Shown here one piece after another: positions 61,717 to 62,385 of a stretch of DNA of 64,000 bases. A model generated the notes under the pieces. That model made no database searches, had not been told where the DNA came from, and saw nothing but the letters and a program-made list of their open reading frames with translations. Position numbers and translations under genes: made by a program. The stretch comes from Escherichia coli (GTDB lineage Bacteria > Pseudomonadota > Gammaproteobacteria > Enterobacterales > Enterobacteriaceae). Each line of letters begins with the position of its first letter. Positions within the stretch are counted from its first letter, which is position 1. Where the stretch lies: assembly GCF_003790525.1 (NCBI RefSeq), contig NZ_CP033635.1; one strand, written 5' to 3'.

Positions 61717-62385
61717 TTATAAATCATTATCAATCAAACTCAGGAATGTATCTCTGGCATAATTACCAACGATGTTGGTTGTTATCGCATCAAGACTACC
61801 ACCAACGATTCCTCCTACAACAGGAACAAACTTTGACATATTAATAACACCAGTAGCACCTGTTTTTGTAAGCAGTCTGAAACCGACTGCCTTATTTATC
61901 TTTACAATAATATCTTTACTAATACATCTAATTGCATTTGTTGTCAACTTTTGTCCTATCTGAATTCCTGCTTCCTTCAAAATATCTTTCGCAGCATTAC
62001 CTACAAGACAGGTATAAACAATAGTTCTGACTTTATCATCACGAATATCCTGGCCACACATGATCGCAATAGATGCAACCATCCTGACCTGAATGAAAAG
62101 GACACTTGAAATATTGGTCGGTATAGTTACTGGTAATGTAATAATTCCTCCAAGACCAGTAAGAAAACCTGATGTGGCTGACTTGGTATTTTGCCATCGA
62201 ATAAGGCTATTTATCTGTTCTTTTAAACTACTACCCGTTTTCAGATAACTTTCCGCAAGACTATGTGCCGTATCAATTCCTGGGATACCAATACCATCGA
62301 TGGATTTTTCATAAGCGTAATCCAGAAATTTTATGATTTTTGATGGCGTGAGAATATTTTCATTATCAGTCATACAACAAAACAC
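61717..62385 (-). CDS. Hypothetical protein, possibly EcsC-like; Gly-rich hydrophobic segments
   Basis: 222-aa ORF (likely start MTDNENIL at 62373); segments GLGGIITLPV and VPVVGGIVGGSLDAITTNIVG; family assignment is from memory and tentative. Confidence 0.45.
   Translation of the reverse strand: MFCCMTDNENILTPSKIIKFLDYAYEKSIDGIGIPGIDTAHSLAESYLKTGSSLKEQINSLIRWQNTKSATSGFLTGLGGIITLPVTIPTNISSVLFIQVRMVASIAIMCGQDIRDDKVRTIVYTCLVGNAAKDILKEAGIQIGQKLTTNAIRCISKDIIVKINKAVGFRLLTKTGATGVINMSKFVPVVGGIVGGSLDAITTNIVGNYARDTFLSLIDNDL

Follow-up and report, generated by a model that had tools for sequence, protein, structure and literature searches.

To our knowledge, the EcsC family has stood in the databases since the 1990s without an assigned function. 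In this work, we describe a member of this family encoded in a stretch of 64,000 nucleotides (nt) from the Escherichia coli contig NZ_CP033635.1 (assembly GCF_003790525.1), referred to below as the window, at positions 61717..62373 on the minus strand. The host, strain Br_112_kylling, is a chicken-associated (avian-type) E. coli. The family takes its name from the third gene of the Firmicute ecsABC operon, the function of which is unknown, although it has been linked to peptide transport (PMC5810056; for the background on Ecs, see PMC2996298). The founding protein, EcsC of Bacillus subtilis, belongs to the same Pfam family as the window protein and is alike in size (roughly 220-240 amino acids, aa). 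In its surroundings, however, it differs: the founding gene adjoins an EcsA/EcsB-type ATP-binding cassette (ABC) transporter, whereas no such transporter lies beside the E. coli gene or in 80 related loci from other species. Moreover, the founding gene is part of a conserved Firmicute operon, whereas the branch described here occurs sporadically, on plasmids and islands. Since the ecsAB context is not part of the Pfam definition, membership in the EcsC family stands without it.

A second point of reference is the PADLOC model PDC-S29, where PDC denotes a phage defence candidate, one of 145 untested single- and multi-gene candidates (bioRxiv 10.1101/2024.01.29.577857). The PDC models go back to genes that lie within BREX, DISARM or type I restriction-modification (RM) systems (bioRxiv 10.1101/2024.01.29.577857). 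The window gene resembles PDC-S29 in that its protein matches the model over the full length and in that it forms a single-gene unit (the “S” class), and some of its relatives adjoin type I RM genes. In contrast to the defence-embedded genes from which such models were built, the window copy is situated neither in nor beside a recognisable defence system.

Members of the family have also been linked to immunity elsewhere. EcsC-like genes have been predicted to share operons with jukA, the sensor gene for jumbo phages (bioRxiv 10.1101/2022.09.17.508391), and in a type III-E CRISPR locus the CASP sigma factor is predicted to target an EcsC-like gene (PMC10028731). These genes fall into the same Pfam family as the window gene, a comparison made at the family level only and not at that of subfamilies, and they differ from it in being adjoined by jukA, CRISPR or sigma-factor genes, none of which lies near the window copy. 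Both links would fit a reusable effector module. Finally, some source annotations name relatives of the window protein “DUF697 family”. The DUF697 inner-membrane protein YcjF of E. coli is larger and paired with ycjX, and bears only a weak, motif-level resemblance to the EcsC-like protein: when a profile of 94 family sequences was aligned with YcjF by hhalign, the probability was only 6.8% (E = 0.005), over 57 columns near the second helix of the hairpin described below.

The EcsC-family gene, its conservation and spread

The initial annotation had placed at this site a Gly-rich hydrophobic protein of 222 aa, possibly EcsC-like. The open reading frame (ORF) itself is present in the ORF listing at 61717..62385 on the minus strand, with a GTG start. 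This GTG (62383-62385), however, is directly preceded by an in-frame TAG and falls within the sequence AGGTG, which resembles a Shine-Dalgarno element and precedes an ATG by 9 nt. The RefSeq protein begins at that ATG, at 62373, and comprises 218 aa (WP_000131421.1 in the source strain, WP_072721036.1 in strain CM2). Because of the adjacent TAG, the Shine-Dalgarno-like spacing and the RefSeq start, it is likelier that the gene occupies 61717..62373 on the minus strand (218 aa, 657 bp); the GTG would add 4 aa. The reading frame proposed initially was therefore retained with a shifted start, and the features at the gene itself are as follows.

61717..62373, minus strand: EcsC-family gene of the PADLOC PDC-S29 type (from the ORF, Pfam, PADLOC, RefSeq and the ratio of nonsynonymous to synonymous substitution rates, dN/dS)
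62383..62387, minus strand: AGGTG resembling a Shine-Dalgarno element, located 9 nt ahead of the ATG at 62373 (from the sequence itself)

Both motifs on which the initial annotation relied were found in the translation, GLGGIITLPV at residues 73-82 and VPVVGGIVGGSLDAITTNIVG at residues 183-203 (numbered from the ATG start). The description of the protein as Gly-rich and hydrophobic was fair given its composition (Ile 14.2%, Gly 9.2%, Thr 9.2%), yet the hydrophobicity is confined to two stretches, residues 66-107 and 182-205, with Kyte-Doolittle maxima of 1.9 and 1.3, respectively.

The suspected kinship with EcsC was confirmed by the Pfam search, which gave PF12787 (EcsC) at 44.5 bits against a gathering cutoff of 30.4 (E = 1.9e-11). 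The match is a single stretch covering residues 53-214 and profile positions 82-235 of 240, so that the first ~50 residues lie outside it. No family besides EcsC appeared in the Pfam scan up to E = 1, and an assignment to another family was not seen; among the matches listed, 120 of 120 homologues carry PF12787. The RefSeq product name, “EcsC family protein”, agrees with this, and NCBIfam contained no model matching the protein. The PADLOC model PDC-S29 was matched along its whole length (E = 6.4e-86, 285.4 bits, residues 10-216 on profile positions 10-214 of 220), while its sister model PDC-S30 gave a weaker match (E = 3.8e-12). With a RefSeq/Pfam name and a PADLOC candidate model at hand, public resources already record the protein both under its family name and as a candidate; as annotation, the finding is known, and ordinary there.

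The ORF is clearly a genuine gene, far beyond chance, as follows from the number of its relatives and from the low dN/dS. At E <= 1e-3, the protein matched 2238 protein clusters, the best relatives outside E. coli reaching ~1e-80, and the dN/dS values relative to two E. coli variants were 0.03 and 0.11. Relatives about 60% identical were found in Aeromonas, Vibrio, Pseudomonas, Stenotrophomonas, Duganella, Paenibacillus, Brevibacillus and other Bacillales, as well as in Bacteroidales and Campylobacterales, that is, in the Proteobacteria, Firmicutes, Bacteroidota and Campylobacterota, and an alignment of 25 diverse members retains ~60 invariant positions. The occurrence is patchy: a scan of 100,044 species genomes, one genome per species, yielded 348 confirmed loci (~0.3% of species), and the gene is present in 33 of 5426 complete E. 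coli genomes (0.6%). It is also carried by 355 plasmid records, 300 of which are from Klebsiella. The high conservation together with the patchy occurrence points to a branch that has spread horizontally under strong constraint. A phage origin was considered and rejected, as only two “UNVERIFIED_ORG” Listeria contigs carried the gene among 50,697 phage records.

The most compact carrier is the E. coli plasmid pE6474.4 (2131 bp, NZ_CP116985.1), where a 63%-identical EcsC copy is the only annotated coding sequence (CDS). The other 1.3 kb of this plasmid are common to many ~2-kb enterobacterial plasmids bearing different single cargo genes. The plasmid may be ColE1-like, an assignment that relies only on the likeness of its backbone to these ~2-kb plasmids, one of which is annotated with Rop; a search of pE6474.4 with Rfam returned nothing at the gathering thresholds. 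The Klebsiella plasmids (~300 records) carry a 56%-identical copy. In pKCTC2242 (IncFIB/IncHI1B; locus L085, positions 7207-8636), the only record looked at in detail, the EcsC gene begins 27 nt after a DUF2971 gene, and the region also carries a DUF1778-GNAT toxin-antitoxin pair and a nuclease-related (NERD) protein. The DUF2971-EcsC pair in Klebsiella plasmids may represent a different two-gene arrangement. An IS66 element cuts the EcsC gene short in E. coli strain AL.H8 (locus L089, positions 6983-7393).

To see what accompanies the gene, all ORFs of at least 40 aa in the 80 related loci and in the window were clustered by BLASTP. No neighbour family recurs in these loci; only the EcsC gene itself and its antisense shadows do. 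An ABC transporter beside the gene was found neither in the window nor in the source genome, and none is conserved in the 80 loci. In most loci, the gene is bordered on both sides by non-coding gaps of ~50-500 nt. The absence of a shared neighbour in the 80 loci and the position as the sole annotated CDS on a 2.1-kb plasmid show that the EcsC gene is a single-gene unit without a conserved partner. A minority of the loci do have genes of a defence type directly adjacent: an OLD-family nuclease in Pantoea, GmrSD in Methylophilus and a RES-domain protein, in one locus each, and HsdM in two loci (a Pseudomonas and a Bacillus). The immediate neighbours further include matches to the AriA, PDC-S11 and PDC-S18 models, and the second neighbours include WYL (3 loci), HsdS, SLATT_5 and relaxases.

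Protein architecture and a possible action on the membrane

The AlphaFold2 model, built from the 94-sequence alignment, is all-helical, with a predicted local distance difference test (pLDDT) score of 84.7 and a predicted template-modelling (pTM) score of 0.76. Its long helices span residues 50-74, 86-105, 113-150 and 183-217, and the confidence is lowest at a tip formed by residues 80-83. The protein is thus predicted to be a helical bundle of ~210 residues. Sequence entropy is lowest at residues 67-105, comprising GLGGxxTxPVxIP and the next helix with the invariant Q95 and R97, and at residues 163-195 (GFRL...PxxGGxxGG). The invariant positions also include G73, G75, G76, P81, P85, G187 and G191 and the RWQN motif (59-62). 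The most conserved part of the protein is a marginally hydrophobic, Gly/Pro-rich helical hairpin (~66-107, with GLGGxxTxPVxIP at its tip) together with the C-terminal GGxxGG helix.

Rare fusions give an indication of how the domain may be oriented. On the N-terminal side, the EcsC domain is fused to a Ser/Thr kinase or to TerB, and on the C-terminal side to an ABC/SMC-type ATPase or to GNAT. The kinase-EcsC fusion recurs, as a cluster from several data sources, while the other fusions are singletons; metagenomic examples are P0251 (505 aa, kinase), P0160 (482 aa, TerB-like repeats) and P0131 (811 aa, ABC/SMC-type ATPase). A scan of the fusion linkers revealed no hydrophobic segment. As the fusion partners are cytoplasmic and the linkers lack such segments, both ends of the EcsC domain are probably cytoplasmic as well, in which case the hairpin would be a two-pass or re-entrant membrane element. 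A classical polytopic membrane protein is not supported by the insertion-energy sums given below, and the cytoplasmic fusion partners at both ends speak against it too.

No solved structure was found by sequence at E <= 1. The top rows of the Foldseek search were the alpha-pore-forming toxins AhlC, MakA, SmhB and ClyA, at a level that is not significant (E ~1, probability ~0.1). The protein recalls single membrane-acting abortive infection (Abi) or exclusion proteins, and alpha-helical pore formers with a shielded hydrophobic hairpin, in being small and stand-alone with a central hydrophobic hairpin flanked by helices; there is no significant match to them in sequence or structure, so that the likeness would concern only a possible way of working.

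We tentatively favour the reading that the protein is a self-contained effector acting on the membrane in conflicts with phages or mobile elements. This reading draws on the status of PDC-S29 as a PADLOC candidate, on the defence-type neighbours in some species, and on the literature on jukA and type III-E CRISPR. According to it, the conserved hairpin would attach to or insert into the inner membrane from the cytoplasmic side; once an infection is sensed, the membrane would be compromised, as in abortive infection, or else entry would be blocked at the membrane. The same domain might serve as an output module wherever it is fused to or paired with a kinase, TerB, an ABC-type ATPase, JukA or type III-E CRISPR. 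In its boldest form, which we regard as rather doubtful, the proposal would be that the PDC-S29 branch is a complete one-protein immune or exclusion system, in which a cytoplasmic helical bundle drives the hairpin into the inner membrane once infection or the entry of foreign DNA disturbs the cell, and that it provides a killing or blocking module shared by JukA, the sigma-factor circuits of type III-E CRISPR, kinases, TerB and ABC-type ATPases. If true, this would be the first function for the long-unexplained EcsC family.

A number of points weigh against an effector of this kind. PDC-S29 is a candidate by prediction and not a characterised system (bioRxiv 10.1101/2024.01.29.577857), and the sole other paper found to mention it reports only its detection in a Streptococcus thermophilus genome. 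Our literature search on PDC-S29, PF12787, EcsC in combination with phage or defence, and DUF697 brought up no functional test. The jukA-EcsC operons are predicted only, and the active non-JukB operons that were tested paired jukA with Xre-family regulators (bioRxiv 10.1101/2022.09.17.508391). The hydrophobicity of the protein is marginal for a transmembrane helix: simple sums on the Hessa scale amount to +3 to +5 kcal/mol, the best segments of 19 residues having +3.2 and +4.1 kcal/mol, so that stable insertion into the membrane would not be assured. As to the neighbours, the enrichment in defence genes appears modest, with about one locus in eight having such a gene directly adjacent, which is a rough estimate made without a formal background comparison. 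In the window, a PADLOC scan of the tetratricopeptide repeat (TPR) protein, the insertion sequence (IS) fragment, the small zinc-ribbon ORF and the 117-aa protein that surround the gene gave no match.

Three further objections are, at the same time, arguments for the strongest alternative, namely that the protein is a housekeeping accessory of the envelope or membrane, such as a stress-related factor or a transporter accessory, carried as island cargo unrelated to phage defence. First, the genes that directly flank it in other species are for the most part ordinary ones of metabolism or transport. Second, the rest of the island is rich in genes for the envelope and for the uptake of metals (an outer-membrane barrel, YebF and DolP paralogues, DoxX, sitABCD). 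Third, a recogniser of fast-evolving phages would not usually keep an identity as high as ~60% across phyla, and conservation of this degree is in keeping with a target that is either the lipid bilayer or a conserved partner in the cell. The naming of the family after the third gene of ecsABC, with its link to peptide transport (PMC5810056, PMC2996298), points in the same direction, as does the weak motif-level likeness to YcjF (E = 0.005, probability only 6.8%). Nevertheless, neither an ABC transporter nor any other partner is conserved in the 80 loci, and the gene is rare (only ~0.3% of species and, in E. coli, 0.6% of genomes). IS66 disrupts it in one strain, and it is borne by plasmids, including one of 2.1 kb with no other annotated gene. 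In addition, OLD, GmrSD or type I RM genes are directly adjacent in some loci, and the protein matches a model built from defence-embedded genes. A housekeeping role appears somewhat less probable than the effector favoured above, and is one to be reckoned with.

The island and the local gene block

The effector that we tentatively favour would act on its own. The initial annotation had placed the gene in a cassette with a zinc-ribbon gene, possibly as its effector or membrane component, and this proposal has to be judged from the surroundings of the gene in the window, the features of which are listed below.

57876..57890, no strand: left junction of the island, palindrome CTCCCC-TCT-GGGGAG (three-way alignment of three insertion sites)
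58057..59250, plus strand: tyrosine integrase at the left end of the island (ORF and RefSeq)
59617..60672, plus strand: TPR-repeat protein of 351 aa, convergent with the EcsC gene (Pfam TPR families)
60774..61393: IS remnants, an ISAs1 fragment and a partial transposase, between the TPR and EcsC genes (RefSeq)
62419..62436, minus strand: weak terminator-like hairpin with a T-run, separating the zinc-ribbon ORF from the EcsC gene (consensus scan)
62465..62656, minus strand: small zinc-ribbon ORF, 63 aa from the ATG (MIFPCPPITFICTNC...CPVCG) or 73 aa from the GTG at 62686
62747..63100, minus strand: hypothetical protein of 117 aa (WP_000508154.1)
63137..63226, minus strand: truncated second copy of the zinc-ribbon N-terminus (MALPQPPVTFICTRCKWRKTIV..., resembling MIFPCPPITFICTNCQWSKTII; read from the sequence)
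63313..64000, minus strand, running past the end of the window: outer-membrane beta-barrel gene (Pfam OMP_b-brl, 2.9e-12)

The island starts at ~57.88 kb, just past glnH, with the tyrosine integrase first, followed by the TPR protein, the IS remnants, the EcsC gene, the zinc-ribbon ORF, the 117-aa gene and the outer-membrane barrel; past the end of the window, it continues with the YebF and DolP paralogues, DoxX and sitABCD. In the interval 61.6-63.1 kb, the GC content is 0.32-0.36 against ~0.5 in the flanks. Owing to this uniformly low GC content, the EcsC gene appears to have been imported as a single block with the small ORF and the 117-aa gene. The outer-membrane barrel gene, which borders the AT-rich block, is annotated in RefSeq as “outer membrane protein” (750 nt). 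The 117-aa protein matched no family in Pfam, PADLOC or PHROG; its gene has a dN/dS of 0.19 and adjoins the EcsC gene in E. coli variants with ~79% DNA identity; in the 80 loci, it does not stand beside the EcsC gene in other genera. The TPR protein is found near the EcsC gene, in the same relative position, in the variant E. coli blocks, where a diguanylate cyclase gene takes the place of the IS remnants. It also occurs without the block, beside an lpxM paralogue on chromosomes and on plasmids of enterotoxigenic E. coli (ETEC).

The same integrase island was observed at three chromosomal sites: after glnH in the window, where it splits glnH from the remaining glnHPQ operon, after lptG in strain CM2, and within the 5′ end of ulaE in strain AR_0085. 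The junctions span positions 57876-58057 of the window, ~19880-20058 of locus L001 and ~5880-6058 of locus L082 (AR_0085), and each host flank ends in the palindrome CTCCCC-N3-GGGGAG(G) where the island DNA starts. This suggests a tyrosine-integrase element targeting a palindromic motif, not a tRNA gene. In strain PapRG-04-4 (locus L088, positions 700-15356), a ~79%-identical block with the TPR, diguanylate cyclase, EcsC and 117-aa genes is located in a tRNA-Phe island, ~5 kb from the leoABC genes for dynamin-like GTPases.

As to the zinc-ribbon ORF, RefSeq has no annotation at its position, and its matches to Pfam zinc-ribbon families are sub-threshold only. It is open in AR_0085 (84% aa identity), and on the plasmid pRHB40-C01_2 an ORF at the same position with 37% aa identity keeps the pattern PPxxFICxxCxWxKT...PVCG, with one Cys replaced. 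Since it stays open in the variants and shows a dN/dS of 0.24-0.37, it is probably a real, fast-evolving small gene. Its synonymous divergence (dS) from AR_0085 (L082, positions 8400-8597) is 0.31, compared with 0.08 for the EcsC gene and 0.04 for the 117-aa gene, and this hot spot of divergence could reflect either a recombination patch or the rapid evolution of a small gene. Immediately upstream of the 117-aa gene, the N-terminus of the small ORF recurs in truncated form, cut off still sooner in AR_0085; this second copy is probably a decaying remnant of an older duplication.

The cassette proposal held only within E. coli. One could suppose that the zinc-ribbon peptide, and perhaps the 117-aa protein, regulates, neutralises or triggers the EcsC protein in the manner of a toxin-antitoxin or sensor-effector pair. 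The order of the 117-aa gene, the zinc-ribbon ORF and the EcsC gene is indeed kept in E. coli variants with ~79% DNA identity, on chromosomes and a plasmid (the window island, the tRNA-Phe island and the plasmid block), and the low GC content is uniform across the block. The divergence of the small ORF, which remains open under a dN/dS of 0.24-0.37 while its dS of 0.31 exceeds the 0.04-0.08 of its flanks, would fit a specificity or antitoxin component, and a terminator-like hairpin (7 pairs, 3 of them G-C; a pattern match only) separates it from the EcsC gene. On the other hand, the homologues of the zinc-ribbon ORF form two clusters only in a database of 5.8 billion proteins, both from E. coli-type contigs, no family match is above threshold, in the plasmid variant another residue stands in for one Cys of the second pair, and the ORF is unannotated in RefSeq. 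Beyond E. coli, the EcsC gene is solitary: in the 80 other-species loci, the pattern CxxC-N8-40-CxxC occurred at the chance level within 500 nt of it (3 near vs. 17 far), no other partner was found there, the gene has no annotated companion on the mini-plasmid, and its upstream neighbour in Klebsiella plasmids is the DUF2971 gene. From the restriction of the zinc-ribbon ORF to the E. coli block and the solitary EcsC gene in the 80 loci, it appears that the cassette is a local E. coli feature and the zinc-ribbon ORF is no general partner of EcsC; a regulatory pairing of the two within E. coli is improbable.

Lastly, that the gene is a functionless passenger, decaying foreign DNA borne by the island, is very improbable: it does adjoin IS remnants, seldom occurs in E. 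coli, where IS66 truncates it in one strain, and lies in AT-rich DNA likely to be silenced there (judging by the GC values), yet its reading frame is intact, its dN/dS of 0.03-0.11 within E. coli bespeaks purifying selection, which makes a dead gene unlikely, and it keeps ~60% identity to other phyla with ~60 invariant positions among 25 sequences.

Meaning for the EcsC family

The gene described here offers a clean test case for the EcsC family: it measures 657 bp, is under strong purifying selection, has no conserved partner and occurs naturally as a copy on a mini-plasmid, and it is this compactness, independence of partners and natural mini-plasmid setting that make it convenient. If the protein proves to be protective against phages or plasmids, the family would gain a function and a widely shared membrane effector module would be identified. 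If it is not protective, the defence-candidate label propagated by annotation pipelines would need correcting.

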